Below, one piece after another: positions 6,980 to 62,361 of a DNA stretch of 64,000 nucleotides. Position numbers and translations under genes: made by a program. The stretch is from an uncultured delta proteobacterium. Its GTDB lineage: Bacteria; Myxococcota; Myxococcia; Myxococcales; Myxococcaceae. The notes beneath the pieces were generated by a model. That model did not search any database, was not told the DNA's origin, and saw nothing but the letters and a program-made list of their open reading frames with translations. The stretch's first letter is position 1. Every line of letters begins with the position of its first letter. The DNA is taken from NCBI GenBank assembly GCA_963796055.1, contig CAWCKH010000004.1, positions 3,584,001 through 3,648,000 on the forward strand. The letters run 5' to 3'.

Positions 6980-7554
6980 AGACCGGACGGCTCGAGGCCT
7001 TCAGCGACGGCGTGCTGGCCATCGTCATCACGATCATGGTGCTGGAGCTCAAGGTGCCGCATGGCAGCGACCTGGGTGCGCTCCGGCCGATGGTGCCGGT
7101 GTTCCTCAGCTACGGCCTGAGCTTCGTGTACGTCGGCATCTACTGGAACAACCACCACCATCTGCTCCAGGCCACGAAGGAGATCGGGGGCGGGGTGCTG
7201 TGGGCGAACCTCGTGCTGCTCTTCTGCCTCTCGCTCATCCCGGTGGTGACGGCCTGGGTGGGCGACAATCCCCACGGGCGCTGGCCGGCGGCCCTCTACG
7301 GGGTGGTGCTGCTGCTCTCCGGGCTCGCCTACGTGTTGCTGGAGCGGGCGATCATCGTCCACGAGGGGCCGCAGTCCGAGGTGGCACGGGCGGTGAGCGG
7401 CACGCTCAAGGACAAGCTCTCCCCGGTGGCCTACCTGGTCGGCATCGCGCTGGCGTTCGTCCATCCGTGGCTGGGCGAGCTGGTGTACGCGGGCGTGGCC
7501 CTCGCCTGGATCGTCCCCGACCGGCGCATCGAGTCGAGGCTTCACCGCCGCTGA
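6976..7554 (+). CDS. TMEM175-family (DUF1211) potassium channel
   Basis: RLEAFSDGVLAIVITIMVL signature, YWNNHHH, multiple TM helices; ATGA overlap with lutC stop. Confidence 0.92.
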   Translation: MKTGRLEAFSDGVLAIVITIMVLELKVPHGSDLGALRPMVPVFLSYGLSFVYVGIYWNNHHHLLQATKEIGGGVLWANLVLLFCLSLIPVVTAWVGDNPHGRWPAALYGVVLLLSGLAYVLLERAIIVHEGPQSEVARAVSGTLKDKLSPVAYLVGIALAFVHPWLGELVYAGVALAWIVPDRRIESRLHRR

Positions 7555-7658
7555 TCCGCTGGCCCGGCGGCTGCACCGTTCGGTACCCCGGGGCACCGCC
7601 CCAGAGCAGAATACGCCCGGGGCACGCACCGCCGAGCTCCGGGGGAGGACGCCACGCC

Positions 7659-10600
7659 GTGAGGCATGCATCGACCCGTCTCGTCTGCGCCGCCATGCTC
7701 GTCGCCGTCGCGCTCACCGCCTGCAAGGAGAAGCCATCGGGGCAGGCACCGCTGCAGCCGCTCCCACCGCCACCCGCGCTCTCCATCGCGCCGGAGGCGC
7801 TCCCGAGCTCCGGCCTCACCGTCGTGGCCGCCCGCCCGCACGAGGTGGTGGGCGCGGACGCACGGCCGACCATCACCTTCTCCCGTCCGGTGGTGGCGCT
7901 GATGTCCATCGAGGAGCAGAAGGCGCTCGCCCCGCCTGCGTCCCTGAGCCCCGCGGTGGAGGGGGAGTGGCGGTGGATTGGCTCGGCCAGCGTGGAGTTC
8001 GTCCCCAGGACGCCGCTGCCGTTCGCCACCCGCTTCACGGTCACCGTCCCCGCCGGTCTCAAGGGCGTGGACGGCTCGAGCCTCCAGGAGGCCTACAGCT
8101 GGTCCTTCGACACACCCGGACCACGCCTCGAGTCCGTCCAGCCCGCGGGCCAGTGGCGCTGGCTTCGCCCCACCGAGGACATCGTCCTGGTCTTCAACCA
8201 GGCGGTGGTCGAACCCGAGAAGTCCATCTCGCTCCGCGTGGGGAACGAGGGGACGCCCTGGCCCATCACCGTGAGCACTGCCGCTGCGCCCGCGGCACCG
8301 GAGGAGGTGGAGCGGCCGGGCCGGAACTTCGTCCCGAGCCGCCGCACCACCGTCACGGTCAAGGTCGGAAAGCCGCTGCCCCTGGCCACCGACGTCCTGC
8401 TGGTGGTTGCCACGACGCTCCGGGCCAAGGAGGGGCCGCTCGCGCTCGACCAGGAGCAACGCATCGCCTACCGGACCTACGGGCCCGCCCGCATCGGGAG
8501 CATGTCGGCCTGCTTTGGAGGGTACGACTGCCCCTACGGCCCTCTGGTCATCGAGAGCACGAATCCCCTGTCCGTCGCCTCCTTGAAATCAAACCTCAGG
8601 ATCGAGCCGGCGGTGGAGCTCGACTGGGGGCACGCCTCGAGTCCCCCCGGCGCTCGAGGTGACCGGCACGAGGCCGTCACCGTGGTCCCGGGCAAGTTCC
8701 GCCCCGGGACCTCCTACAGCGTCTCCATCGCCTCCGGGGTCAACGACGCGTTCGGACAGACTGCGCCCGCGGCCCGGGGGCAGATGCGGACCGACGACCT
8801 GCGGCCGGAGTACGAGCTGGGACCGGACGTGGCGCTGCTGGAGGCGAGGGGAGACGGGGCGCTTCCGGTGCGCTTCACCAACGTCACTCAGCTGGACGTG
8901 CAGCTCTGGCCGCTCGGGCCCGCGGAGATGGCCCGCTTCCTCTCGGGGCGCCGCTCGGCGCAGACGGTTCCCTCCGGACAGCCGGTCACCACCCAGCTGG
9001 TGCTGGACGGCACGCACAACCTCCCCGGCACCCGGCCGGTGAAGGTGCGCGAGCTGCTCGCGGGCAAGAACACCGGCCTCTTCCACCTGGTCACCAGCGC
9101 ACCGGAGATCGACGTCAAGCACCAGTGGCAGCGAACCCAGCGCGTCACGGGGCAGATCACCGACCTCGCGGTGCACACCAAGCTCGGGGCCACCTCGGGC
9201 GTGGTCTGGGTCACCCGGGTCTCGGACGGCACCGTGGTCCCCGGCGCCGCGCTCTCACTCTACGACGCCGACGGTGCGGTGAAGTGGCACGGAAAGACGG
9301 ACGGCGACGGTCTGGCCCGGGTGCCGGGTCTCGCCTCGCTGGTCGGGCCGGGGAGGGGCGCCGGTCGGCGAAACCGGGACCTCGACAGCGGCCCGCCGTT
9401 CGCGCTGGTCGCCGCCGCGCTCGGTGGCGACACCGGGGTCACCCTGGCCGACTGGTCCGGAGGGTTCGGCCCCTGGGCGTTCGGGGTGGAAGGGGCGTGG
9501 GACGGGAAGCGCCCGCAGTCGATGGGCTTCGCCACCGCCGAGCGCGGCATCTACCGGCCGGGTGACACCGTGCTGGTGAAGGGGATGCTCCGCTACCGGC
9601 GCCTGGGCGTCGTGACCTCGCCGCCCAAGGGGACGCAGGCCGAGGTGGTGGTCACCGACTCGCACGGAAAGCAGATCTGGTCGCGCAGCGTCCCGCTGAG
9701 CGACTACGGCACCTTCTCGGCCGAGGTGGCGATTGATGCCGCGGCCGCTCTGGGGACCTATTCCCTCCGGGCGAACGCGAACGTCCCCTCGGGCAAGGTC
9801 GACACCGGCACGGCCTTCCGGGTCGAGGAGTACCGGCCGCCCCAATTCAAGGTGGACGTCACCACCCGGTCCGCCGACGCGTTCGCCGGGCAGCCGCTCG
9901 AGGGGCGGGTGGTGGCCCGCTACCTCTTCGGCGGAGCGATGCCGGGCGCGACGGTGCGCTGGACGGCGACCCGGACGACCGATGATTTCCAGCCACCCGA
10001 CAACGCTGGCTTTGCCTTCGGCGTCGCCACCTGGGAGTGGAGCGACGAGTCGCCGCAGCCCAGCACCGAGGTCATCGGCGCCGGTGAGGGGAAGACCGAT
10101 GCCCAGGGCGTGCTGGACCTCACCGCCGGGCAGGTCGAGACCCCCGGAGGCCGGTCGTCGCTGGTGACGCTCGAGGCCGAGGTGGCGGACGTCAACCGCC
10201 AGCGCATCGCCAACCGGACGCAGATCCAGGTGCACCCCGCCGCGCTCTACGCCGGCATTCGCCAGCGGAACGTGGAGGGCTTCGCCGAGGTGGGCAAGCC
10301 GGTCTCGCTGGAGGCGGTGGCGGTGTCGCCCGACGGCAAGCGCCAGAAGGCACAGGTCCAGGTGACCGTTCTCCGGCGCGACTGGAAGTTCGTCCGGAAG
10401 AAGACCGCCGGGGACCGCTGGGAGACTCTCAGCGAGCCGGTGGAGGAGTCGGTGGCCTCCTGCGCGGTGAAGGTCGAGGGCCTGCCCGGCGCCTGCACCT
10501 TCACCCCGAAGGCCCCCGGGTACCACGTGCTGCAGGCCGAGGTCGTCGACGCCCAGAAGCGGAAGCAGGTTTCTCGAAGTTCGCTGTATGTCGTCGGCGA

Positions 10601-13499
10601 CGGCTGGGTCTCCTGGCAGCGCAACGACTCGGACCGCATCGATCTCGTGACCGACAAGGCGGTCTACGACCCGGGCGAGACGGCGAAGGTCCTGGTCAAG
10701 AGCCCGTTCCCGGCGGCCGAGGCGGTGCTCACCGTGGAGCGGGAGGGCGTCAGCTCGGTCCGCCACGTCAGGCTCAAGGGCGCCGCCACGGCGCTCGACG
10801 TCCCGCTGGGCGAGGCGGGAATCCCGGACGTCTACGTGGGGGTGGTGCTGGTGCGCGGGCGCGTGGCCCAGGGCGACGCACCCGAGGCCGGCGAGGATCC
10901 AGGGCGGCCTCAGGTCAGGATCGGCTACGCGAAGCTGAAGGTGGAGCGGAAGAGCAAGCGGCTGGCGGTGGAGGTGACGCCCGGTCGGACGCAGTACCGG
11001 CCGCGCGAGACGGTGAAGGTGGCCCTGCGGACGACCGACTGGAAGGGTGCGCCGGTGCCCGCCGAGGTCGCGGTGTGGGCGGTGGACGAGGGCGTGCTCC
11101 GCCTCACGTCGTACGAGCCGCCGGATCCGCTCGACGCGCTCCAGCCGGAGCGAGGCCTGTCGGTCCGGATCGGCGAGCCGCTCATCCACCTGGTGCGCCG
11201 GATGGTCTACGCCGACAAGGGGATGACGACGGGCGGCGGAGGTGGCGCCGAGGGCGGGGGAGGGATCCGCTCCCGGTTCAAGACCACCGTGCTCTTCGCC
11301 CCCGCGGTGGTGACCGGCACGGACGGACGGGCCGAGGTCGAGTTCACGCTCCCCGACAACCTCACCACCTACCGCATCATGGCCCTGGCGCTGGACAAGG
11401 GAGACCGGGGCGGGAAGGGCGGCAGCAGCTTCCAGGTCGCCAAGCCGCTCCTGGCCATGCCGGCGCTGCCGCGGTTCGCGCGCGTGGGAGACACGGTGGA
11501 GGCGGGGGTCGTCGTCCACGCGCCCTCGGGGAAGATCAAGGAGGTGGAGGTCACGGCCACCGCCAGCGGTCCGCTCAAGCTGCAGGGCGAGACCCGGCGT
11601 GTCCTCGCGCTCCCCGAGGGAAAGCCTCGCGAGGTGCGGTTCCGGTACCTGGCAGAGGGGTCGGGAGAGGCAGTGCTCCGCTACGCGGTCAAGGGCGGCG
11701 GCGAGCAGGACGCGGTGGAGCAGCGGATCCCGGTGCGCATCCCCACCCAGATGGAGGCGGTGGCAATCGCCGGCGAGAGCAAGGACGTGGCGCGCGAGCA
11801 GCTCTCGAGCCCCTCCGGGGTGCGGCCGGACGTGGGCGGCCTCGAGGTGACGATGGCCTCCACCGTGCTCGGCGGGTACGGGGAAGCGATGCGGCAGCTG
11901 GTGGACTACCCCTACGGTTGCCTCGAGCAGCTCTCGTCCCGTCTCGTTCCCTTCGTCGCGCTCCGCGAGCTGCACGGGGTCTTCAAGCTGCCGTGGCGCC
12001 CGGACAGCGCCCGGACCTGGGTGGGGGAGGACGCCATCGCCCGCTGGGGAACGACCGACCCCGACGAGGTCACCACCAGGACGGTGAAGGCCATCGAGGC
12101 GCTGCAGCGGTACGACGGCGGGTACGGCTACTGGAGCTCGGACAGCTGCAGCTCGCCCCATGGCTCGGCGTACGCGGTCCTGGCCCTCGGGCGCGCCGCG
12201 GAGGTGGGTTACCCCGTCGACCGGGAGGCGCTCCGGAGAGGCCAGCAGTTCCTGTCCAGGGTCGCGGCGGGCAACGTCCAGACCTGCTCCTGGTGGGTCC
12301 GGCAGGTCGACCCCGGCACCCGGGCCTTCGCGCTCTACGCGCTGGCGCGCACCCGGGCCCCCCAGGCCTCGAGCGCCACGGCGCTGTTCGCCCGCCGCTC
12401 GGAGCTCCCCTTCTACGGCAAGGCGATGCTCGCCGACGCGCTGTGGATGGGTGGTGGCGACCGGGCCGCGGCACGGCTCCTCACCACCGAGCTGCTGGAC
12501 CGGGCGAAGGAGACGTCGGGCACGCTCCACCTCGAGGAGATGAATGCGGTGACCTACCAGTCCGACTGGTCGAGCGACCTGCGCACCACGGCGATCGCGC
12601 TGCAGACGCTGGTGGACGTCACGCCCGACCATCCCTACGTGGGGAAGATGGCCCGCTACCTGGTCGAGAGTCGGGGAGCAAACGGGCGCTACAAGACGAC
12701 GCAGGAGGCGGCCTTCGCGCTGATGGCACTGACCGAGGTGGTCCGGACCCGGGAGAAGGACGCGCCGGACTTCGTGGGCAAGGTGCTCGTCGGCGGCAAG
12801 CAGGTCGCCGAGTCCGAGTTCCACGGCCGGAGCATGGACGTGCGGCGGACGGTGCTCCCGATGTCGCAGCTCCCGCAGCTCGGGAAGTCGGCGGCCTTCG
12901 AGTTCCTCCGCGACGGGAAGACCGGTCTCCTGTCGTACACTGCGGTGCTGCGCTACGCGCCGGCGGAGATGCCCCGCGACGCGCTGGACCGGGGGCTGGT
13001 CGTCCAGCGGTGGATCGAGCCGTACTCGGGCGGCGGACAGCTCAAGGCGGTCAAGGCCGGCGAGCTGGTACGGATCAAGGTCCGGGTCGGCACCCCGGCG
13101 GCGCGGGCCAACGTGGCGCTGGAGATTCCGCTGCCCGCGGGCCTGGAGGCGGTGGACACCAGTCTTTCGACCACGGCCCGGCTCTCCCGGGGGGAGCCGT
13201 CGGCGGACACCGAGACCGACGAGATGGAGGACGCCCGCGAGGCAGGCGTTCCCCCCTGGGTGCTCGGTTTCTGGAACCCCTTCAACCACACCGAGCTGCG
13301 CGACGACCGGGCCCTGTTCTTCTCCAACGAGCTGCCCCCGGGCGTCCACACCGTCTCGGTGGTCGCCCGGGCGACGAGCCCCGGTGACTACCTGCTGGTC
13401 CCGGCTCGGGCGGAGGCGATGTACGCGCCCGAGGTGTTCGGCCGATCGGAGGGAGGCAACTTCCAGGTGCTCGACGAGGGGAACGTCGCGGCCCGCTGA
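7659..13499 (+). CDS. Bacterial alpha-2-macroglobulin lipoprotein (YfhM-like)
   Basis: GGAGGA RBS, GTG start, lipobox LTAC, ERGIYRPGD, FTLPDNLTTYR, thioester motif YPYGCLEQ, EAMYAPE; adjacent to pbpC. Confidence 0.95.
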   Translation: MRHASTRLVCAAMLVAVALTACKEKPSGQAPLQPLPPPPALSIAPEALPSSGLTVVAARPHEVVGADARPTITFSRPVVALMSIEEQKALAPPASLSPAVEGEWRWIGSASVEFVPRTPLPFATRFTVTVPAGLKGVDGSSLQEAYSWSFDTPGPRLESVQPAGQWRWLRPTEDIVLVFNQAVVEPEKSISLRVGNEGTPWPITVSTAAAPAAPEEVERPGRNFVPSRRTTVTVKVGKPLPLATDVLLVVATTLRAKEGPLALDQEQRIAYRTYGPARIGSMSACFGGYDCPYGPLVIESTNPLSVASLKSNLRIEPAVELDWGHASSPPGARGDRHEAVTVVPGKFRPGTSYSVSIASGVNDAFGQTAPAARGQMRTDDLRPEYELGPDVALLEARGDGALPVRFTNVTQLDVQLWPLGPAEMARFLSGRRSAQTVPSGQPVTTQLVLDGTHNLPGTRPVKVRELLAGKNTGLFHLVTSAPEIDVKHQWQRTQRVTGQITDLAVHTKLGATSGVVWVTRVSDGTVVPGAALSLYDADGAVKWHGKTDGDGLARVPGLASLVGPGRGAGRRNRDLDSGPPFALVAAALGGDTGVTLADWSGGFGPWAFGVEGAWDGKRPQSMGFATAERGIYRPGDTVLVKGMLRYRRLGVVTSPPKGTQAEVVVTDSHGKQIWSRSVPLSDYGTFSAEVAIDAAAALGTYSLRANANVPSGKVDTGTAFRVEEYRPPQFKVDVTTRSADAFAGQPLEGRVVARYLFGGAMPGATVRWTATRTTDDFQPPDNAGFAFGVATWEWSDESPQPSTEVIGAGEGKTDAQGVLDLTAGQVETPGGRSSLVTLEAEVADVNRQRIANRTQIQVHPAALYAGIRQRNVEGFAEVGKPVSLEAVAVSPDGKRQKAQVQVTVLRRDWKFVRKKTAGDRWETLSEPVEESVASCAVKVEGLPGACTFTPKAPGYHVLQAEVVDAQKRKQVSRSSLYVVGDGWVSWQRNDSDRIDLVTDKAVYDPGETAKVLVKSPFPAAEAVLTVEREGVSSVRHVRLKGAATALDVPLGEAGIPDVYVGVVLVRGRVAQGDAPEAGEDPGRPQVRIGYAKLKVERKSKRLAVEVTPGRTQYRPRETVKVALRTTDWKGAPVPAEVAVWAVDEGVLRLTSYEPPDPLDALQPERGLSVRIGEPLIHLVRRMVYADKGMTTGGGGGAEGGGGIRSRFKTTVLFAPAVVTGTDGRAEVEFTLPDNLTTYRIMALALDKGDRGGKGGSSFQVAKPLLAMPALPRFARVGDTVEAGVVVHAPSGKIKEVEVTATASGPLKLQGETRRVLALPEGKPREVRFRYLAEGSGEAVLRYAVKGGGEQDAVEQRIPVRIPTQMEAVAIAGESKDVAREQLSSPSGVRPDVGGLEVTMASTVLGGYGEAMRQLVDYPYGCLEQLSSRLVPFVALRELHGVFKLPWRPDSARTWVGEDAIARWGTTDPDEVTTRTVKAIEALQRYDGGYGYWSSDSCSSPHGSAYAVLALGRAAEVGYPVDREALRRGQQFLSRVAAGNVQTCSWWVRQVDPGTRAFALYALARTRAPQASSATALFARRSELPFYGKAMLADALWMGGGDRAAARLLTTELLDRAKETSGTLHLEEMNAVTYQSDWSSDLRTTAIALQTLVDVTPDHPYVGKMARYLVESRGANGRYKTTQEAAFALMALTEVVRTREKDAPDFVGKVLVGGKQVAESEFHGRSMDVRRTVLPMSQLPQLGKSAAFEFLRDGKTGLLSYTAVLRYAPAEMPRDALDRGLVVQRWIEPYSGGGQLKAVKAGELVRIKVRVGTPAARANVALEIPLPAGLEAVDTSLSTTARLSRGEPSADTETDEMEDAREAGVPPWVLGFWNPFNHTELRDDRALFFSNELPPGVHTVSVVARATSPGDYLLVPARAEAMYAPEVFGRSEGGNFQVLDEGNVAAR

Positions 13500-13505
13500 G
13501 GGAGG

Positions 13506-15803
13506 ATGGTTCCATCGGCCATGAGAACTCGTGTGGGCCGCGCGCTGGTCGCAGCCGTCGGGGCACTGGTGCTCGGGTGTCTCGGCTTCGTCGCCGGGCC
13601 GCTGCCCCCCGGGCTGCTCGACCCGGCCGGCACGCTGAGTGTCCGCGTGCTCGACCGCGACGGCCAGCTCCTCCGGGAGCTTCCCTCCCGCCGAAGCTCG
13701 CGCAGCATCTCGCTCCCGACGGATGCGCCCGTGCCCGCCGTGCTGCGCGACGCCTTCATCGCCTCGGAGGACCGGCGCTTCGAGTGGCACCCCGGGGTGG
13801 ACCCACTGGCCATCGCCCGCGCGGCGGTGAGCAACCTCCGGGCGGGTCGGGTGGTGAGTGGCGCGTCGACCCTCACCCAGCAGCTCGCGCGGCTGGTCGT
13901 CCCGCGCCGGCGGACGCTCGCCGGCAAGGCGGGGGAGGCGCTCTGGGCCCTGCGGCTGTCGGCACACCTGTCGCGTGAGGACATCCTCCGCGCCTACCTG
14001 GACCGGGTGGCGCTGGGGCACGACCTCGTCGGGGTCGAGGCGGCCGCACAGGCTTACTTCGGTCGGCCGGCGAGCGCGCTGTCGGCCGGGCAGGCGGCGC
14101 TGCTCGCGGCCATCGCCCGTTCCCCGGCCCGGGTGGACCCGTGGGGAGATCCCGGGGTCACCATGGAGGCGATGCGCGAGGTGCTCGCACGGATGCGCCG
14201 GGGCGGACGGCTCGACGCCCAGCTGGAGCGGGTGGCCGCGACCGCGGACCTCGACGTCGTCCCCCCGGCCCGGCCGTTCGGCGCCCCGCACCTGGTGGTC
14301 GACCTCGCCGGAAAGCTCGGCACGCTCGGCCTCGGCGGCGCGGTGGAGGTGCGGACCACCCTCGACCCGGCACTCCAGCGCGACGTCGAGCGCGCGGTGC
14401 GCTCGGAGCTGGCCGCGGACCCGCGTCTCGGCCAGGCCGCGGTGCTCGTCCTGGACAACGCCTCGGGCGAGGTGCTCGCCTACGTGGGCTCGGCGGATTT
14501 CCGGGACGACGCCCACGAGGGTCAGAACGACGGGGTCCGTGCCCGCCGCCAGCCCGGGAGCGCGCTGAAGCCCTTCGCCTACGGGCTGGCGCTCGCCAGC
14601 GGCTGGACCCCGGCCTCGGTGCTGAGCGACGTGGATCTCGAGGTGGGCACCGCCGGCGGTGCCTGGCTCCCGCGCAACTACGACCGGCGCCAGCACGGAC
14701 CGGTGCGCCTGCGGGCCGCGCTGGCCAACAGCTACAACGTCCCGGCGGTCGAGCTGACCGACGCGCTCGGCCCCGAGCGAGTTCTCGACGTGCTCCGCGA
14801 GGCGGGTTTCTCCGCCCTGGATGCCAGCGCCGAGCACTACGGCGCCGGGCTGGTCCTCGGGAACGGCGACGTGTCGCTCTGGGAGCTGGCCCGGGCCTAC
14901 CGTGGGCTGGCCCGCGGAGGCATCGTCGAGCCGCTCCGGCTGGTGCGTGCGGCGACGGACCCGCTGGGCGAGCGGGTCGAGGCCAGGGCCGAGCTCGCCC
15001 CCCGGCGCTTCCTGCCCGCGGACGCGGTGGCGCTGCTGACCGACCTCCTCTCGGACGAGATGGCCCGCGCGCCGGCGTTCGGCCTGGACAACGCGCTCCG
15101 GCTGCCCTTCCCGGTGGCGGCGAAGACCGGCACCAGCCGGGCGTACGTGGACAACTGGACCGTGGGCTTCACCCGCGAGCGCACGGTGGCGGTGTGGGTG
15201 GGGAACTTCGATGGCCGGCCGATGCAGCGGGTCTCGGGCATCACCGGGGCGGGGCCTCTCTTTGCCCGGGTCATGCGCCGGGCGATGGTCGGCCTGCGTC
15301 CGGCGCCGCTCGTGGACCGCGCGCGGTTCCAGCGGGTGCGCATCTGTCCGCTCTCGGGTCATCGAGCCGGGGAGGCCTGCCCGGGCTCGTTCGAGGAGGT
15401 CTTCCTCCCCGGGACCGCGCCGACCGAGCCGTGCGTGATGCACCGGATCGCGGACGGTCGGCGGGTGCTCGCCCTCGACGCGCGGTACAGCGGCTGGGCC
15501 GAGCGCGAGCGGCTCGAGGTCGCGGCCGGGGAAGGTGGCGGCGCTTCCCCGGGCTTCATCACCCCGCGTGACGGGGACGAGTTCCTGGTGGAGGCCGGCA
15601 TCCCGACCACGTCGCAGACCATCCCGGTCCGGGTACGGGGCGGCGGGGCCGCCCGGTTGTGGGTCGATGGACGGGCGGTGGAGCTTGACGCCGGCCGCTC
15701 GGTGCGGCTCCCCCTGAGCGGCGGGACGCACGCGCTGGAGCTCAGGGCCCCAGGCTCACCGGACCCCGTCCAGCGCATCCAGGTCCGTGTGCGGGGGCCG
15801 TGA
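13506..15803 (+). CDS. pbpC: Penicillin-binding protein 1C
   Basis: SEDRRF and GASTLTQQL transglycosylase motifs; GSALKPF (SxxK), SYN, KTGTS transpeptidase motifs; follows A2M; start may be 13521. Confidence 0.94.
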   Translation: MVPSAMRTRVGRALVAAVGALVLGCLGFVAGPLPPGLLDPAGTLSVRVLDRDGQLLRELPSRRSSRSISLPTDAPVPAVLRDAFIASEDRRFEWHPGVDPLAIARAAVSNLRAGRVVSGASTLTQQLARLVVPRRRTLAGKAGEALWALRLSAHLSREDILRAYLDRVALGHDLVGVEAAAQAYFGRPASALSAGQAALLAAIARSPARVDPWGDPGVTMEAMREVLARMRRGGRLDAQLERVAATADLDVVPPARPFGAPHLVVDLAGKLGTLGLGGAVEVRTTLDPALQRDVERAVRSELAADPRLGQAAVLVLDNASGEVLAYVGSADFRDDAHEGQNDGVRARRQPGSALKPFAYGLALASGWTPASVLSDVDLEVGTAGGAWLPRNYDRRQHGPVRLRAALANSYNVPAVELTDALGPERVLDVLREAGFSALDASAEHYGAGLVLGNGDVSLWELARAYRGLARGGIVEPLRLVRAATDPLGERVEARAELAPRRFLPADAVALLTDLLSDEMARAPAFGLDNALRLPFPVAAKTGTSRAYVDNWTVGFTRERTVAVWVGNFDGRPMQRVSGITGAGPLFARVMRRAMVGLRPAPLVDRARFQRVRICPLSGHRAGEACPGSFEEVFLPGTAPTEPCVMHRIADGRRVLALDARYSGWAERERLEVAAGEGGGASPGFITPRDGDEFLVEAGIPTTSQTIPVRVRGGGAARLWVDGRAVELDAGRSVRLPLSGGTHALELRAPGSPDPVQRIQVRVRGP

Positions 15804-15812
15804 CGAGCCGGT

Positions 15813-15962
15813 TCACACCGACGCGACCACCGCCCCCGCCCGCTGCACATCCGCGCGGACGAGGACGAGGAAGGGCAGCCCCATCAGGCAGAGGAAGCAC
15901 GCCACCGCGCACCGTACCCGCGCCCAGCTGCGGAACTCGGTCCGGTCGAGTTGGATCATCAT
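15813..15962 (-). CDS. Small membrane peptide, paralog 1 (49 aa, apparently truncated)
   Basis: AAAGGAGG RBS; SWARVRCAVACFLCLMGLPFLVLVRADVQ aligns with paralog 2 (SWMRVRSVAAGFLCVMGLPIALALADVQ). Confidence 0.65.
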   Translation of the reverse strand: MMIQLDRTEFRSWARVRCAVACFLCLMGLPFLVLVRADVQRAGAVVASV

Positions 15963-16013
15963 GGCCACTCCCTCCTTTCTGAACAGGCAGGTCGCCCGTG
16001 CACGCCTGGAGGT

Positions 16014-16028
16014 TGCACCCGCCGTGCC
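16014..16028 (-). promoter_or_regulatory. Putative sigma54 -24/-12 promoter of paralog 1
   Basis: GGCAC-ggcggg-TGCA (GG-N10-GC), 52 nt upstream of ATG; same element at the same position before paralogs 2 and 3. Confidence 0.7.
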
Positions 16029-16123
16029 GGATCCACGTTGCTGAAAACACGGGGGAGTCCGCTCGGCCGGTGTGACCTCCACGTCCACCCTGGGCCGGCG
16101 CCTGTTGCGGCTCAGGCAAGAGA

Positions 16124-16770
16124 TCAGCGCGGAGCCGTCGGAAGGTCTCGCAGTACGTAGAGGTGCCCCAGGGTTCGGCCGAACATCAACGCCAGCTCCT
16201 GGCCGTCCGGTGACACCGCCACGTGCGCCGTGCCGAGCCAGCCCGTCGGGTCGACGGGCCCGAGGCTGCGCTCCTCCAGCACCTGCCCGCGAGTGAGGTC
16301 GATCCGGAAGAGCCGGGCCAGCTGACCGGCCCAGGACCTGCGCTGGCGATCCGTCCACCCGCGCATGACCACCAGGGCCGGCTGCAGCCCGGTGAGGGTG
16401 GGGAGCGGGCTCGCGACCGAAAAGAGGATTCTCCGGTCACGGGAAAAGGAGGCGAGGGTGTTGCTCCAGTCGGTCCACGACAGCAGCGTCTGCTTCCCGG
16501 TCCGGTCGAAGTGGACGACCTCGGACCGTTCGAACTGGTTCTCCAGGAGCACGCTCCATCGGGACCGATGTCCTCGAGATGGATGTCGGACGGGGCCTGG
16601 TACACCTCCCGCTGCCGCCCGCGTGGGTCCACCGCGAGGAGGGTGTTCCGCCCCAGCTCTCCGGTGGTGACCCATACCTCCGCGTCGTCCGGGGACCAGG
16701 CCAGTCCCTCGGCGCCGAGGACCGAGACGATCTGGTAAGGCCCGACCTGGTCACCCGGGCTCAGCTGCAC
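16124..16770 (-). pseudogene. Remnant of Ser/Thr kinase + beta-propeller (PD40/TolB-like) gene; kinase domain deleted, frameshifted
   Basis: Starts LSPGDQVGPYQIVSVLGAEG (kinase subdomain I start), jumps to GLAWSPDD...; continues in another frame (VLLENQ...SPDGQELA...LYVLRDL). Confidence 0.7.
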
Positions 16771-16884
16771 GTCGACCGAGCCCAGCCGAGGTCGCTCCGG
16801 CGCGACGGACCCAGAAACGAGAGCGGGGCCACCGACACGCCCCCGTGTCCGTGGCCCCGCGTTCACTCTCTCCTATGGAGAGCC

Positions 16885-17124
16885 TCAGCGATTCGAAGGG
16901 GACATCGCCAGCAGGGCCTCGTCCGAGCCCGGGCCGATGTCCAGCCCCGCCTGGGCCACGTGCACCACGCCAGGCACCGACTCCGTGAAGACGGGGGCCA
17001 CGGCGGCCTCGGAAGGCTGAACGTCCGCCAGCGCAAGCGCAATCGGGAGCCCCATCACGCAGAGAAATCCCGCCGCCACGCTCCGCACTCGCATCCAGCT
17101 GCTGCCCTCGGTCTCGTTCATCAT
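16885..17124 (-). CDS. Small membrane/secreted peptide, paralog 2 (79 aa; GLDIGPGSDEALL motif)
   Basis: GGAGGAG RBS, hydrophobic N-terminal helix, C-terminal motif shared with paralog 3 with synonymous codon differences. Confidence 0.8.
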   Translation of the reverse strand: MMNETEGSSWMRVRSVAAGFLCVMGLPIALALADVQPSEAAVAPVFTESVPGVVHVAQAGLDIGPGSDEALLAMSPSNR

Positions 17125-17177
17125 GGCCTGCTCCTCCGTGGCGCCGTTTGCTTCGGCGCCCGACAGGTTCCGGGGAC

Positions 17178-17210
17178 TGCAGCCCTGGTGCCTGGCTCAA
17201 GTCGTTGAAA
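17178..17210 (-). promoter_or_regulatory. Putative sigma54 promoter plus IHF-like site of paralog 2
   Basis: GGCAC-cagggc-TGCA at 17178-17192; TTTCAAcgacTTG at 17198-17210 resembles IHF consensus WATCAANNNNTTR. Confidence 0.7.
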
Positions 17211-17313
17211 TCACACTTCTTTCAACACGATTCCGTCGCGCCGGTATCTACAGGAGGCCCCGGGCGTTGCCGGCGAGGCAACATGTCGACCGGGGTTGGC
17301 ACAGGAGGGGTCG

Positions 17314-18288
17314 ATGTCGGAGGAGCGGCTGCGGTACCTCGCTGAGGCGGATGTGCGCGCGGCGGGGCCGCCGCTGCCGGAGCTCGTCCGGGCCCTCGAG
17401 GCGGCCTTTCGTGACCTGGGGGAGGGCCGAGCCGAGGTGCCAGCGAAGCTCGGCGTGCATCCGTCGGCCGGCTCCTTCTTCCACGCCATGCCAGCGCTGT
17501 GGCTGGGAGCATCCGCCGCGGCGGTCAAGTGGGTGGGCTCCTTCCCGGGGAATCGGAGCCGTGGCCAGCCGAGCATCTCGGCGCTGCTCGTCCTGAGCGA
17601 TCCGGACGACGGCCGGCCGCTGGCGATCATGGACGCACGCTGGCTCACCGTGCAACGCACGGCGGCGTGCTCCGCGCTCTCGGCGAGGTTCCTTGCCCGG
17701 CCCTCGGCGCGCAGCCTCGGAGTGCTGGGGTGCGGGCTCCAGGCGCGAGCGCACGTGGAGGCGTTCCGGGCGCTCCTTCCGCTCGAACGGGTGCGGGCGT
17801 TCGACCGTCACCCGGAGCGGGCAGCCGCGTTCGCCGAGGAGGTCGCGCGTGCGCACGGCGTCGATGCCAGCGCGCATGCCTCGGTGCAGGAGGTGGTGGA
17901 GGACATGGACGTCGTCTTGACCGCGGGCGCCATCGGCACCCTTCCGGACCCGCCCATCGCCGCGGGCTGGCTCGCGCCGGGAGCCTTCGCCTGCAGCATC
18001 GATTACGCGAGCCCCTGGAGCGGGGGTGCGCTTCGCGAGCTCGATCTGGTGTCCACGGACGACCGGGCGCAGCTCGAGGCGGCGCGGAAGACCGGGCCTC
18101 TGGCCCGGCTCCCACCCGTGCACGCCGACCTCGCCGAGCTGGTCACCGGGCGCAGGACGGGGCGAACGGCCGAAGCCCAGCGCACGATGGCGTGCAACCT
18201 CGGATTCGCGCTCGCCGACCTCGCCGCGGCGGCGCTCGTGGTCCGGCGTGCCCGGGACGCCGGGCTGGGGACCCTCCTTCCCCTCTGA
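17314..18288 (+). CDS. Ornithine cyclodeaminase / mu-crystallin family protein
   Basis: HAMPA, AVKWV, LTVQRTAA, GCGLQA Rossmann motif, GFALADLA; AGGAGG RBS. Confidence 0.9.
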   Translation: MSEERLRYLAEADVRAAGPPLPELVRALEAAFRDLGEGRAEVPAKLGVHPSAGSFFHAMPALWLGASAAAVKWVGSFPGNRSRGQPSISALLVLSDPDDGRPLAIMDARWLTVQRTAACSALSARFLARPSARSLGVLGCGLQARAHVEAFRALLPLERVRAFDRHPERAAAFAEEVARAHGVDASAHASVQEVVEDMDVVLTAGAIGTLPDPPIAAGWLAPGAFACSIDYASPWSGGALRELDLVSTDDRAQLEAARKTGPLARLPPVHADLAELVTGRRTGRTAEAQRTMACNLGFALADLAAAALVVRRARDAGLGTLLPL

Positions 18289-18309
18289 ACGCTCACCGAT
18301 GGGTGGCGT

Positions 18310-18540
18310 TCACTCGGGCATGGGCGAGGTCACCAGCAGCGCCTCGTCCGAACCCGGCCCCACGTCGATTCCCGCCGCCGCCTCGTGCATCGAGGGAGGC
18401 ACGTATCCACTGACCGAGGAGGTCGCCTCCGGTGCCGCCGGGTGAACCCCCGCGGTCGCCAGGGTGACGAGCGCCGTCACCGACAGGAACCCCAACAGCA
18501 CGTTCCGCACCCACCTCGGCCCATCATTCGCATTGCTCAT
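18310..18540 (-). CDS. Small membrane/secreted peptide, paralog 3 (76 aa; GIDVGPGSDEALL motif)
   Basis: GGAGGA RBS, hydrophobic helix, conserved C-terminal motif. Confidence 0.8.
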   Translation of the reverse strand: MSNANDGPRWVRNVLLGFLSVTALVTLATAGVHPAAPEATSSVSGYVPPSMHEAAAGIDVGPGSDEALLVTSPMPE

Positions 18541-18597: not shown

Positions 18598-18612
18598 TGC
18601 AGAGTCGGTGCC
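18598..18612 (-). promoter_or_regulatory. Putative sigma54 -24/-12 promoter of paralog 3
   Basis: GGCAC-cgactc-TGCA (GG-N10-GC), 58 nt upstream of ATG. Confidence 0.7.
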
Positions 18613-18782
18613 TCGCGCAAGTGCCCGGGCTCAGCGCAGGCTCAACACGGTGGTGTGACTTCGCAGGCTGCAGCCGCGCGGAGGATGTCGCGGCGGCGGC
18701 AACCGCACGCCTCGTGCGGCGCGCGATCGCACACAGCGCCGTGTCGCAGAGAGGCCCCTGAACGCGCAGGGACGAGCACCCG

Positions 18783-54661: not shown

Positions 54662-54716
54662 CCGAAAAACCTAAGCCCTGCAGCTACTTAGGCTGCGGGG
54701 CTTTTGTGTTTTTCGG
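54662..54716 (+). terminator. Hairpin terminator after tRNA, overlapping integrase 3' end
   Basis: CCGAAAAAC..AAGCCCTGCAGC-loop-GCTGCGGGGCTT..GTTTTTCGG with T-rich tail. Confidence 0.7.
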
Positions 54717-55790
54717 TTCACTCACAGCAACCGTGTCCAAAACGCGTCCATGCTTTTCGAGCGTCCGGGCGGCGATTCGCAGGTCGCTCTCGTCGACGAC
54801 GTTGTAGCGGTCGAAGACCGCGCGGGTGCGGTGTCCCGACATGCGCATCACGACGGATTCGGGGATGCCGGCCTTGCGCGCGCGGGTGACAAAGCTTCGG
54901 CGGAGGTCGTGGAACCAGAGTCCGTGAAGCCCTGAATTGCGCACCGCGCGCCGGAACGGTCGCCGGAGGTCCTCCCAGGGCCTTCCCGTCTTGGGATTGG
55001 GGAGGACCGGAGCGGCGCCGATGCCGCGGGGAAGCCCCTTCAGCGCTCCCGCGAGCCGTGCGGTGAGCATCACCAGCCTCGGCGCCTCGGACTTCGTGTC
55101 CTGGGGGGCCAGGGTGATGGTGCCGCTGCGTAGGTCCACCTGCTCCCAGCGGAGGTCGAGGACCTCGCGCTTGCGCATGCCAGTGTCGAACGCCATCAGG
55201 AGGATGGGGCGGAGCGGCTCCTCACTCGCTTCGAAGAGCCGGCCGAACATCTCCTCGTCGACCACCATCCGCCGGACGTTGGGCTTTCGGAGAAGCCGCG
55301 CCTCGGCAATGGGGTTGTGGCGGAGGGTGCCAAGCCGGACCGCGTGGTTCAGCACGCGCTTGAGCAGCTCGACCTCCCGGTCCAGCGTGGCCGGACTCGG
55401 TGGCCCACCCCGCTGGGTCTTCTCCGTTGACCGTCCGACCCGGTACTCCTCGACGTGACGGACGGTGAGTGCGCTGGCGCGCACCTGGCCGAGGTGACGG
55501 CGCAGGTGCGCGGCCCGCCCGGACTCGGTAGACCAGGCGCGATTCTCCTGCGCACCGAGCTTCTCGTACTGGGCCAACAGCTCGGCCGTGGTCTCGGTCG
55601 CCATCCGGTGTCGTTCGAAGAACTGGCCCTCGAAGGCATCGGTCTTGAGCTTGGCTTCCAGTGCCACGGCCTGCTCCCGGGTGGGAATCTTCGACTGCCG
55701 CAGTCGGATGGGTGGCCCGTCTGGACGCACGAGCCACGCATCCACCTTCCAGAGTGTCCTTCCGTACGACTGGTACTTCCTGACGCCCAT
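54684..55790 (-). CDS. Tyrosine recombinase / phage-type integrase
   Basis: TGMRKRE (R), DTKS (K), FHDLRR (HxxR), MSGHRT (H), DRYN (Y). Confidence 0.96.
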   Translation of the reverse strand: MGVRKYQSYGRTLWKVDAWLVRPDGPPIRLRQSKIPTREQAVALEAKLKTDAFEGQFFERHRMATETTAELLAQYEKLGAQENRAWSTESGRAAHLRRHLGQVRASALTVRHVEEYRVGRSTEKTQRGGPPSPATLDREVELLKRVLNHAVRLGTLRHNPIAEARLLRKPNVRRMVVDEEMFGRLFEASEEPLRPILLMAFDTGMRKREVLDLRWEQVDLRSGTITLAPQDTKSEAPRLVMLTARLAGALKGLPRGIGAAPVLPNPKTGRPWEDLRRPFRRAVRNSGLHGLWFHDLRRSFVTRARKAGIPESVVMRMSGHRTRAVFDRYNVVDESDLRIAARTLEKHGRVLDTVAVSEPKNTKAPQPK

Positions 55791-55832
55791 TCGTTTTCTC
55801 CTGGGCAGACGGGCGTCGCGGCCGGGAGGGTA

Positions 55833-56051
55833 CTACACGGGGGCTGACGTCGTGGACCGGGCCAGGAGCACGCGGTCGAGCTCCGGGCGGTAGAAGCGAA
55901 GGAGTCGCCCGAGGCGGTGTCCCGGAATGAGGCCGCGGCGCACGGCCTGGTACAGCGCCTTGCGGGAGGGGAGGGCAAGGTAGCCCGCGGCCTGCTCGGG
56001 CGTGAGCCAGTTCGCCGCGTCGACCTTCGGTCCCTCAGCGCCGCCGGCCAC
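55833..56051 (-). CDS. Excisionase-like HTH protein
   Basis: WLTPEQAAGYL...ALYQAVRRGLIPGHRLGRLLRF; directly upstream of integrase. Confidence 0.85.
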   Translation of the reverse strand: MAGGAEGPKVDAANWLTPEQAAGYLALPSRKALYQAVRRGLIPGHRLGRLLRFYRPELDRVLLARSTTSAPV

Positions 56052-56361
56052 GGGCCGAGGCTCCTGAGGAAGCAGGGTTCTGCTCGCGGAGCGTCTCGTA
56101 GCGGCGGAGCAGCAGCTCTTGGACGTAGCCCAGGATGTTGAGCTTCCTGGCCTTCATCTCCGCCTCGAGAACGTCGACCACGTACTGCGGGAGGCGGAAG
56201 CAGGTCCGAAGCTGGACGAGGACTTCCCGGACTGCCTCGGCGTTGTACGAGACGCCCAGCGCCGGTTTGAGGATCTCCTGGACGAAGTAGAGGTCCTCGG
56301 ACGGGACCTTCACGTTGAGCGGCTGGAGCGCCTCGTCCTTCGGAAGCGGAGTCCTTCCCAC
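56035..56361 (-). CDS. Small putative DNA-binding protein (ribbon-helix-helix-like)
   Basis: GRTPLP..LNVKVP strand, helix, NAEAVREVL helix; good codon bias; in int/xis operon. Confidence 0.6.
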   Translation of the reverse strand: MGRTPLPKDEALQPLNVKVPSEDLYFVQEILKPALGVSYNAEAVREVLVQLRTCFRLPQYVVDVLEAEMKARKLNILGYVQELLLRRYETLREQNPASSGASARGRRR

Positions 56362-56448
56362 ATCTCAAGTAGATTCTAAATAGAACCCAGAGTCAAGCCT
56401 GAGCTTGCGGCATCTCAACAGCGCGGGCACCGTCGTGGAACGAGTCAA

Positions 56449-57811
56449 GACATCGCTGACAGTTGACTGCAGGGTGACGGCGGGTTTCTCAGGCGTTTAC
56501 GGCTCGCGCGTTCAGCAGCGCGTCCTGGGTGACAGTGGCGTTGACAGCCTCTGAGTACGGTGCGTTGACGGGTGTAACGGAGCTGACGTCATCGGGTGTC
56601 AGCACGTTCGCCAGCGGGGCGATCTCGATCATCCCGAGGTCGACGCCGAAGAAGTGAGCTCGCCAGCGCAGGATCCCTTCCTGCTTGAGACCGACGATCT
56701 GGCCCGCGAGGGCCGTGCTGACGAACACCACGTCGTCGTTCACCGAGATGGTCCCCACCTTCGAGACCAGGCGCGTCTTCCACTCGGGCGGGTAGCTCGG
56801 GACGAGCGGGTCGAGCGAGCGACGCTCCGAGTCGCGATAGACCTCCGCTGGCGTCTTGCCACCGAGCGCATCGTGGGGGCGGACCTCGTTGAACTCGATC
56901 ACCCAACGATCGCACGCGCGCTGCTGAGCGCGGCGGGTACGGGCGGGGTTGAGCTCCAGCTCGCTCAGGTCCCGATGCATCCGCTCGTGCCCGCCGTTGT
57001 CCTGCGGGCACCCGGGACGTGAGCGCACGACACGGATCCCGAGCGAGACGAGCCACGCCGAGAGCCGACTCAGTCCGCCGCGGCCGCGGGTGGATACGAA
57101 TGGCGTGCCGTTGTCGCTCTGAATGGCGGCTGGCAGGCCGTGCCGCAAGAACAAGCTCCGGAGGACACGCCGGACCTCTTCGGCCCTCACCGAGCCGAGG
57201 AGGGTCACGGCGAGGACCTTCCGGCTGAACCCGTCTCGCACCGTGAGCGGCTCGCACCGCTCGCGGTTTCGAGCTCGCCACCAGCCTTTGAAGTCCATCG
57301 TCCACAGGTCGTTCGGCCCGTGCACCTCGACCCGCGGGCGCCCGTCGACGCTCCACACTCGTACGCGCGGTCGGTGTCGCCTTAGCCTCCCGAGCCGATG
57401 CAGGACCCGCGCTACGGTGCTCTTGCTCGGCCCGTCCTCGCCCAGCGTGCGCCGAAGCACCCGGGCGATCTTGTCCGGCCCCCAGGTCTGGTGCTGGTCG
57501 CGCAGCTCGAGGATGCGGACGACAATCTCCTCGCCGGTGGTGAGCGGGCTCGAGAGCGGGCGACGGCTCTGCTCGACGAGGCCCGTGTATCCCCGCGCGC
57601 GGAAGCGCCGAAGCCACTTGTGGCCGGTCTGCCGGGAGATGCCGTACTCCCTGCAGAGCGCCGAGATGTTCGCCCCCATCGCGCTGGCCTTCTCGATGAA
57701 CTCCAGCTTGTGGCTCATGACTCGCTGCTCTTTCCAGGGCACGCGACAGTCGAGCAGCCGAAACTGTCAGCGATGTCCTGAACCGGTTTTGGTCAGCGAT
57801 GTCCTGGTACA
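56449..57811 (-). mobile_element. IS481-family insertion sequence (ends approximate)
   Basis: GACATCGCTGACAGTT at 56449-56464 is the reverse complement of 57762-57777; second core copy 57792-57803; encloses transposase. Confidence 0.85.
56489..57742 (-). CDS. IS481-family DDE transposase
   Basis: MPWKE, LCREYGISRQTGHKW HTH, WTMDFKG, SDNGTPF, PQDNGGHERMH, NEVRPH. Confidence 0.94.
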   Translation of the reverse strand: MPWKEQRVMSHKLEFIEKASAMGANISALCREYGISRQTGHKWLRRFRARGYTGLVEQSRRPLSSPLTTGEEIVVRILELRDQHQTWGPDKIARVLRRTLGEDGPSKSTVARVLHRLGRLRRHRPRVRVWSVDGRPRVEVHGPNDLWTMDFKGWWRARNRERCEPLTVRDGFSRKVLAVTLLGSVRAEEVRRVLRSLFLRHGLPAAIQSDNGTPFVSTRGRGGLSRLSAWLVSLGIRVVRSRPGCPQDNGGHERMHRDLSELELNPARTRRAQQRACDRWVIEFNEVRPHDALGGKTPAEVYRDSERRSLDPLVPSYPPEWKTRLVSKVGTISVNDDVVFVSTALAGQIVGLKQEGILRWRAHFFGVDLGMIEIAPLANVLTPDDVSSVTPVNAPYSEAVNATVTQDALLNARAVNA

Positions 57812-61634: not shown

Positions 61635-61884
61635 CTGTCCCTCCTGGGAGGACCGGAACTCTCCACGCTTCGCGTCGAGCCGACAAGCACCGGCTCGACG
61701 TTGCGACGGCCGACGTCACCCTCCGCACTGGGGGGGTATGCGAGCAGAGACGGTTCGGTCGTCGGTGTCATCGCGTGGGACCCCGGAGCAGGTTGGGGTG
61801 CTGCAGACGCGAACTGCGAGCCGATCCCTTCGTAGACGGCAACGCCGCCCGGCTCGGCCAGCGAGACGGCGAGGATGACGGATG

Positions 61885-62361
61885 TCAGGCGCTGGTCTGC
61901 GATCCGCTGGCGGCCGCCCGAGGGGCGCTGATCGCGGCCACCGTTCCCACAACCTCGTCCGGGGTTACGCCGTTGGCCAGCTTGCGGCTCCGAAGATGAC
62001 GCGCCAGGTCGTTGATGGTGATGATTCCCGTCAGGAATCCCGCGCTGTCGACCACCGGGATCCGGTGGACTTGCTCGGCTTGCATCCGTTCCTCGGTCAG
62101 GTGCAGGTCATCCGAGGGCAGGACGGTCACCAACCGCTTGGAAATGACCTCGGAAACCTTGATCTCGTGCAGGGGCTTTCCGCGGATGCACGCGGCCATC
62201 GCGATGTCCCGATCGGTGATGACCGAGGTCAGCCGCCCGTCTGCGGCCACCACCGGGAGGATCCCGATGTCGTGGTCCCACATCGATTGCCCGGCCGCCT
62301 GCAGGGAATCCTCAGACCGGCAGGTCTCCAGATGGGTGCTCATGATTTCCTTGACACGCAT
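61885..62361 (-). CDS. CBS-domain protein
   Basis: VKEIMS, IGILPVV, ITDRDI, RIPVVD, GIITINDL; AAAGGAG RBS. Confidence 0.92.
   Translation of the reverse strand: MRVKEIMSTHLETCRSEDSLQAAGQSMWDHDIGILPVVAADGRLTSVITDRDIAMAACIRGKPLHEIKVSEVISKRLVTVLPSDDLHLTEERMQAEQVHRIPVVDSAGFLTGIITINDLARHLRSRKLANGVTPDEVVGTVAAISAPRAAASGSQTSA

Follow-up and report, generated by a model that had tools for sequence, protein, structure and literature searches.

MgrB-type microproteins are small, hydrophobic and induced by the signaling system that they modulate. The Rap-Phr/RRNPPA systems are built differently: a signal, a spacer and a C-terminal active peptide are encoded beside a TPR protein, the receptors are cytoplasmic so that the peptide needs to be re-imported, and the peptides differ from one receptor to the next. 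Here, we compare these and two further systems with a family of small proteins encoded in a 64,000-nucleotide (nt) stretch of DNA (the window) from the genome of an uncultured myxobacterium (5.53 Mb, ~71% GC, seven contigs). In the window, three minus-strand open reading frames (ORFs), copies 1, 2 and 3, represent the family, and two of them share an acidic motif centered on GPG. In filamentous cyanobacteria, according to PMC12756182, PatX reaches the periplasm by export and is processed, and its basic HRGTGR motif inhibits the cytoplasmic HetR after cleavage by PatP. In Myxococcus xanthus, PMC11506125 describes DdvS, a sigma factor of the extracytoplasmic function (ECF) type, together with DdvA, in which one chain combines a zinc anti-sigma domain with a TPR-CHAT part located in the periplasm and controls a defence island; the trigger of this system is described there as elusive and proposed to be a protein.

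Like PatX, the proteins analyzed here are small Gram-negative precursors that combine a (here predicted) Sec signal and a variable middle with a short motif that is conserved. However, their motif is acidic and centered on GPG, lipoprotein forms exist, and no dedicated peptidase and no HetR-like target turned up, HetR itself not having been searched for. The RG(S/T)GR motif that PMC12756182 gives for PatX/PatS is absent from the family alignments. As in DdvS/DdvA, genes for an ECF sigma factor, an anti-sigma factor and a TPR-CHAT protein flank family members, but they do so only at the loci of distant members, where the anti-sigma factor (250-277 amino acids (aa)) and the TPR-CHAT protein (about 1030-1075 aa) are separate ORFs, whereas the window copies have sigma-54-type promoters and no ECF or CHAT genes in their immediate neighborhood. 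A small gene with a signal, a spacer and a C-terminal motif, and TPR proteins near distant members, recall Rap-Phr/RRNPPA; here, however, the TPR partners are predicted to be extracytoplasmic, the pairing is inconsistent (6/12) and the motif hardly varies. No cognate cytoplasmic TPR receptor lies beside the window copies, and the TPR proteins encoded near distant members belong either to the kinases or to CHAT proteins that bear a signal. The likeness to MgrB-type microproteins lies in small hydrophobic proteins that would be induced by the system they modulate, but Pfam and NCBIfam reveal no sequence similarity to these, and the family is set apart by a conserved motif, predicted to be extracytoplasmic, and by its predicted cleavage sites. 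By analogy, we suggest that the peptide family works like PatX and borders DdvS/DdvA-like switches while being a member of neither.

We tentatively propose, as a reading that may well have to be revised, that the family consists of peptides that are exported upon induction and act back on envelope receptors by means of their motif. This reading is supported by the sequence architecture, the motif-focused selection, the shared promoters and the sensor genes among the neighbors. In the original prediction, made from the letters of the window alone, the three ORFs were taken for signal peptides or precursors with a recognition motif, a function that we, too, infer. The peptide genes and their associated features, all on the minus strand, are as follows.

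15813..15962, minus strand: copy 1, 49 aa, a short paralogue with the signal/hydrophobic segment only and without the GPG motif (orthologues of 46-50 aa in 5/13 genus genomes)
16014..16028, minus strand: sigma-54-type -24/-12 site of copy 1 (5/5 orthologues; background 1.1% per 110 nt)
16104..16120, minus strand: upstream palindrome TTGC-N7-GCAAC of copy 1, a candidate enhancer-binding-protein site (5/5)
16823..16860, minus strand: GC-rich hairpin 3' of copy 2, a candidate terminator (long stems after the stop in 14 copy-2 orthologues; not called by a simple terminator scan)
16885..17124, minus strand: copy 2, 79 aa, predicted signal 1-33 (cleavage between ALA and D), mature part 46 aa (homologue searches, alignment, dN/dS)
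16909..16962, minus strand: motif of copy 2, H55-L72, with invariant A57, D62, G64-P65-G66 and E69 (alignments)
17178..17192, minus strand: sigma-54-type site of copy 2 (14/14 orthologues)
17266..17282, minus strand: upstream palindrome of copy 2 (12/14 orthologues)
18310..18540, minus strand: copy 3, 76 aa, predicted signal 1-30 (cleavage between ATA and G), mature part 46 aa (homologue searches, alignment, dN/dS)
18334..18387, minus strand: motif of copy 3, H52-L69 (alignment)
18598..18612, minus strand: sigma-54-type site of copy 3 (10/10 orthologues)
18687..18703, minus strand: upstream palindrome of copy 3 (10/10 orthologues)

In agreement with the original description, a GGAGG-type ribosome-binding site precedes each of the three ORFs, and each encodes W-x-R as well as a stretch of hydrophobic residues, for which the best 19-residue Kyte-Doolittle mean is 2.1-2.3. 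The GPGSDEALL motif is shared by copies 2 and 3, both of which carry the C-terminal AG(L/I)D(I/V)GPGSDEALLxxSP; the family core, however, is wider than had been predicted and reads HxAxxxxDxGPGxxE. Exact GPGSDEA is found only twice in the genome, and the looser core finds three further intact paralogues. In 69 representatives with a clear motif, the alanine at -5 is conserved in 97%, the aspartate in 99%, G-P-G in 100/99/99% and the glutamate at +7 in 100%. Selection on the peptide had been deduced from six codon pairs that differ synonymously between copies 2 and 3, and we verified all six. Ratios of nonsynonymous to synonymous substitution rates (dN/dS), pooled over gene pairs that are not independent of each other, are 0.098 for DxGPGSDE in 14 copy-2 orthologues and 0.02 in 10 copy-3 orthologues, with linker values of 0.62 and 0.67, respectively; for the N-terminal segment the ratio is 0.04 in copy 2 versus 0.64 in copy 3. 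The motif is under purifying selection. In one subfamily (L046 8828-9100, L049 7560-7811) the motif ends in GPGQCEPC, with a CxxC, and the neighbors are genes for HD-domain proteins and hydrolases; an FHA-sigma-54 activator is also present at L046 and at L179, joined at L046 by a kinase bearing PD40 repeats.

The family is real and conserved, and so far it has been found only in two related uncultured myxobacterial genera. A search with copy 2 matched 118 proteins among 120 candidates, with E <=1e-23 in 12/12 same-genus genomes and a best E of 0.012 in 48 other genomes, and homologous records carry the labels Myxococcaceae or Myxococcota metagenome-assembled genomes. Beyond the window copies, a profile search of this genome recovered three more intact members and two start-less relics, and a 22-sequence profile matches 13/13 genus genomes (2-10 matches each, E 0.05). 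When the same profile was applied to 401 genomes of the phylum, a search in which 13 candidates per genome were scored and in which a negative means not found in those searched, 22 genomes were matched: this genome, 8/8 of its genus, 7/7 of the genus g50 and 6 others. The g50 genus looks like a sister genus, because the activator shared between the groups is closest there (73-77% identity versus about 56-65% in other groups). Among 1.84 billion representatives at 50% identity, 73 match at E <=0.001, of which 70 are 50-110 aa long, and 10/16 metagenome pattern matches are real family members. In a quick family tree (84/101 rows, 90 columns), 22 copy-2/3-type rows are grouped with a support of 97 and little else is resolved.

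Several candidates were discarded or are doubtful. Outside the two genera, L103, L106, L109 and L129 turned out on inspection to be long or wrong frames without the family architecture, and L107 and L108 match profile positions 8-54 only, in frames of 447-449 aa. The pattern matches in Streptomyces, Alphaproteobacteria and Ignavibacteria are in wrong frames, and no true fusion was found, three longer matches being miscalled starts or read-through; P0193 looks like read-through and P0181 is an unrelated repeat protein. Two family genes of genome G004 (L030 9252-9500, L032 8988-9200) are split by frameshifts, as their neighbors often are, probably because of assembly errors. That no known family was recognized in the original prediction agrees with our searches: Pfam gave no match for the three window proteins, the best E in Pfam/NCBIfam among 22 members was 0.019 with no credible match, no credible match was found in the PDB by sequence or by fold, the ESM Atlas gave no feature match at 0.9, and no description of the peptide family was found in the open-access literature. 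In these searches the motif has no credible match to a known domain, and the family is apparently undescribed. Rfam covariance models gave one chance match (E 0.29), outside the peptide region.

The anatomy of the proteins was counted over 101 aligned members, many of them closely related, with signal features assigned by sequence patterns. The n-region is net positive in 91/101 members, A-x-A follows the hydrophobic core in 84/101 versus 24/101 in a linker control, and the motif begins 27-44 residues past the hydrophobic segment and ends 5-15 residues before the stop. The A-x-A alanines at -3/-1 (A31, A33) are invariant in 43/43 copy-2/3 sequences while the flanking residues vary, which points to mature peptides of 46 residues for copies 2 and 3. 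A lipobox is present in 7/101 members, all seven in g50. The sequences display a basic n-region, a hydrophobic h-region and A-x-A or a lipobox, as expected for Sec export and signal peptidase I or II. Because the export handle swaps between A-x-A and the lipobox while the motif is kept, the motif would be located outside the cytoplasm. Together, these features support the predicted export or membrane anchoring of the family proteins. The AlphaFold model (helix 5-33, coil, helix 67-73; predicted template modeling score 0.32) is uninformative and gave no fold match.

The three window genes share a promoter architecture that was not part of the original prediction and is new here. GGCAY-N6-TGC is located 50-63 nt upstream of each window gene and is present in 14/14, 10/10 and 5/5 orthologues (29/29) versus 1.1% of random windows, in agreement with the sigma-54 consensus (-24/-12, GG-N10-GC). 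Further upstream, the palindrome TTGC-N7-GCRAC is found in 27/29 orthologues (background 1.9%). The genome encodes rpoN and has 33 strong matches to the activator domain of enhancer-binding proteins, so that a -24/-12 site, an upstream candidate enhancer site, rpoN and activators are all found by sequence, as expected for sigma-54-dependent genes. Genome-wide, 16 of 299 sigma-54-like sites have the palindrome, 8 of these 16 drive ORFs <80 aa, and two of the eight small ORFs adjoin an FHA-domain activator, which is a candidate regulator. The sigma-54 site also precedes 5/7 of the g50 lipoprotein genes (7/7 with a relaxed pattern). It precedes 0/9 of the ECF-linked members, which carry TGCGAY-N17-CAC at 10/10 genome loci (nine of them 29-35 nt from the start) and 6/6 related metagenome loci. 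Since these related sequences are also the source of the ECF-type motif, only its fixed position carries weight; across the genome, the 17-nt spacing shows no enrichment (68 sites versus 39-66 at other spacings). In another subfamily, TGTCCRG is present in 4/5. From these motifs, the window genes are predicted to be outputs of signal-responsive sigma factors.

Similar promoters precede other small ORFs. In genome G000, a 51-aa lipoprotein-like ORF with a copy-2-like N-terminus and without the GPG motif (C2 209017, minus strand; L184 region) shares the sigma-54 site and the palindrome and is close to a gene for a sigma factor, which has a sigma-54-like site of its own. At C4 505866-508606 (L181), three hydrophobic ORFs of 54-59 aa with sigma-54 sites, 2/3 of them with the palindrome, surround an FHA-domain enhancer-binding protein encoded at 506448-507980, and a similar ORF is located at C2:57746. 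Hydrophobic ORFs of 59-61 aa lie behind sigma-54-like sites at C4 299314, which has a copy-3-like G-W-R-W start, and at C3 376493. Also behind sigma-54-like sites are two Lys/Ala-rich, secreted-looking paralogues of 57-58 aa (C4 1381971, 1382268) that adjoin an enhancer-binding protein and a kinase. TGCGAT-N17-CAC precedes motif-less hydrophobic ORFs of 55-89 aa beside the same ECF clade at L158, L161 and L162.

Copy 1 lacks the motif, and in the original prediction a TGA was noted where copy 2 has Phe. This register is literally correct, but it does not reflect a recent truncation. The coding part of copy 1 matches copy 2 (0/2000 shuffles as good), and the 100 nt past its stop match the tails of copies 2 and 3 no better than shuffles do (p 0.46, 0.67). 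The stops of copy 1 and of the convergent pbpC gene lie only 9 bp apart, pbpC accounting for the DNA past copy 1, and the short copy-1-type genes of the 5/13 genus genomes have a pooled dN/dS of 0.69. The tail shuffles, the adjoining pbpC and the conserved orthologues rule out that copy 1 is a recent nonsense mutant or a motif relic, and we interpret it, from these sequence comparisons, as an old short paralogue under weak constraint.

Other features of the window that concern the neighborhoods of family members are as follows.

16142..16770, minus strand: broken gene remnant for a membrane Ser/Thr kinase whose ectodomain is a beta-propeller (tblastn E 2e-17; Pkinase and WD40)
17296..18288, plus strand: ornithine cyclodeaminase/mu-crystallin gene between copies 2 and 3 (PF02423)
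61673..61897, minus strand: degenerate family relic that has lost GPG, just upstream of a DUF4062/NB-ARC/TPR gene (weak profile match, E 2.2; tentative)

Synteny within the genus covers the liv operon, copy 3, the cyclodeaminase, copy 2, pbpC and alpha-2-macroglobulin, in this order; the cyclodeaminase, which does not separate the peptide genes of L028 and L029, is likely a bystander. The kinase-propeller remnant between copies 2 and 1 resembles an 879-aa kinase at L038, which has its propeller at about residues 345-879; there, the intact kinase-propeller gene lies directly 3' of a copy-3-type gene, and a frameshifted one has the same position in L032. In both genera, distant members flank ECF sigma factor, zinc anti-sigma and signal-bearing TPR-CHAT genes (L045, L047, L054, L110, L112, L118), and kinase-TPR genes flank another subfamily (L113, L119, L120, L125); at L116, an ECF and an anti-sigma gene are located beside a family member. 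Of the ten real members from metagenomes, three directly follow a TPR-CHAT gene (L173 by Pfam; L165 and L167 by eye). Elsewhere in the window, the alpha-2-macroglobulin and penicillin-binding protein 1c gene pair (7200-15803) is syntenic with the peptide locus across the genus, integrase-like and transposase-like ORFs recognized by eye (54687-57742) suggest a mobile element before the 58-64 kb region, and the relic and its DUF4062/NB-ARC/TPR neighbor have the same order as at family members in L049 and L115.

Combining these data, we suggest that the three genes are separately promoted members of one sigma-54-type regulon, with copy 1 as a motif-less paralogue within it, and that they would be activated by an FHA-type enhancer-binding protein acting downstream of a kinase. 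The small precursors are predicted to be exported by Sec and would be cut by signal peptidase, so that a mature peptide of ~46 residues would present the acidic GPG motif in the periplasm. There, the motif would likely act as a feedback ligand that binds envelope sensors; the candidates are membrane Ser/Thr kinases whose ectodomains are propellers or TPRs, or else exported proteases of the TPR-CHAT type that would gate ECF sigma factors. A bolder version of this model, which we consider improbable, is that one universal exported motif serves as the shared ligand of three classes of envelope sensor that are unrelated to each other, namely the beta-propellers of kinases, the TPRs of kinases and caspase-like TPR-CHAT proteases of the periplasm, with each system transcribing its own copy by means of sigma-54 or an ECF sigma factor. 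Several observations weigh against a ligand function. Because ligands usually vary with their receptor, a near-identical motif beside three sensor types would argue equally for a common effector role. A motif peptide is found within 1.5 kb at only 6/12 loci of the ECF clade, the ECF promoter also drives motif-less hydrophobic ORFs, and at several loci (the window; L052, L111, L114, L168, L172) the peptide gene is retained although the neighboring cassette or kinase is absent or broken. With 62 kinase and 37 sigma-70 region-2 matches in the genome, adjacency to such genes is cheap, and most lipoprotein members have no sensor among the two nearest genes. Finally, the signal region of copy 2 hardly varies (dN/dS 0.04), and this would not be explained by a disposable signal peptide.

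Alternatively, the peptides could be stress-induced periplasmic effectors that bind a cation, e.g. Ca2+ or a transition metal, by means of the acidic loop and without a receptor, an explanation that is doubtful but would account for the presence of one motif under several regulators and for the lipoprotein forms. The invariant D and E are seven residues apart, as are positions 5 and 12 of an EF-hand loop; D/N/S/E occupies position 1 in 70/101, position 3 in 57/101 and both in 47/101 members; a His precedes the loop in 63/101, and the modelled helix 67-73 comes right after it. However, the EF-hand pattern, DxDxDG and the RTX nonapeptide each occur in 0/101 members, in the window copies position 1 is Q/E and position 3 is G, and no metal-transport or resistance genes recur among the neighbors scanned. 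The near-invariance of the copy-2 N-terminal segment in 118 homologues lends itself to yet another explanation, which we regard as unlikely: the hydrophobic N-terminal helix, uncleaved or cleaved off, would modulate a sensor inside the membrane in an MgrB-like manner, and the tail would be secondary. In line with this, copy 1 keeps the segment, the promoter and the candidate enhancer site without the motif in five genomes, and both promoter types also precede other motif-less hydrophobic microproteins. Yet the copy-3 N-terminal segment drifts (0.64) while its motif does not (0.02), the motif alone is conserved across the family, and the lipoprotein members would lose the helix, as lipoproteins do on maturation.

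Multi-copy short precursors with an invariant D/E/G-rich core, and a Cys near the core in 25/101 members, are also what would be expected of precursors of ribosomally synthesized and post-translationally modified peptides, in which the C-terminal core would be modified by enzymes encoded elsewhere. However, a Sec signal takes the place of a leader, the cyclodeaminase is missing from some orthologous loci, and no radical SAM, YcaO, ATP-grasp, MNIO, lanthipeptide or ABC-peptidase family was found among 52 neighbors scanned, a selection from 126 listed neighbors plus others, although trans-acting enzymes are possible; on balance, we find this explanation very hard to accept. The least plausible explanation to us is that of a chaplin- or curlin-like peptide that self-assembles at the surface or in the matrix: the predicted export, the small size, the several paralogues per genome and the turn-forming GPG would fit, but the peptides are acidic and Pro/Ala-rich without predicted beta strands, and no secretion or nucleator genes are located nearby among the neighbors scanned.

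To our knowledge, the ligands of myxobacterial membrane Ser/Thr kinases are largely unknown. The family provides a short, synthesizable ligand candidate that has invariant residues and for which cleavage sites and promoters are predicted. Even if the peptides are metal-binding effectors, they make up a new family of conserved microproteins, from a lineage of uncultured myxobacteria, for which two regulatory logics have been mapped. If the motif is indeed a shared ligand, it would give rise to autocrine or cell-to-cell feedback in the manner of plant peptide hormones and would be a first candidate trigger for DdvA-like CHAT switches.

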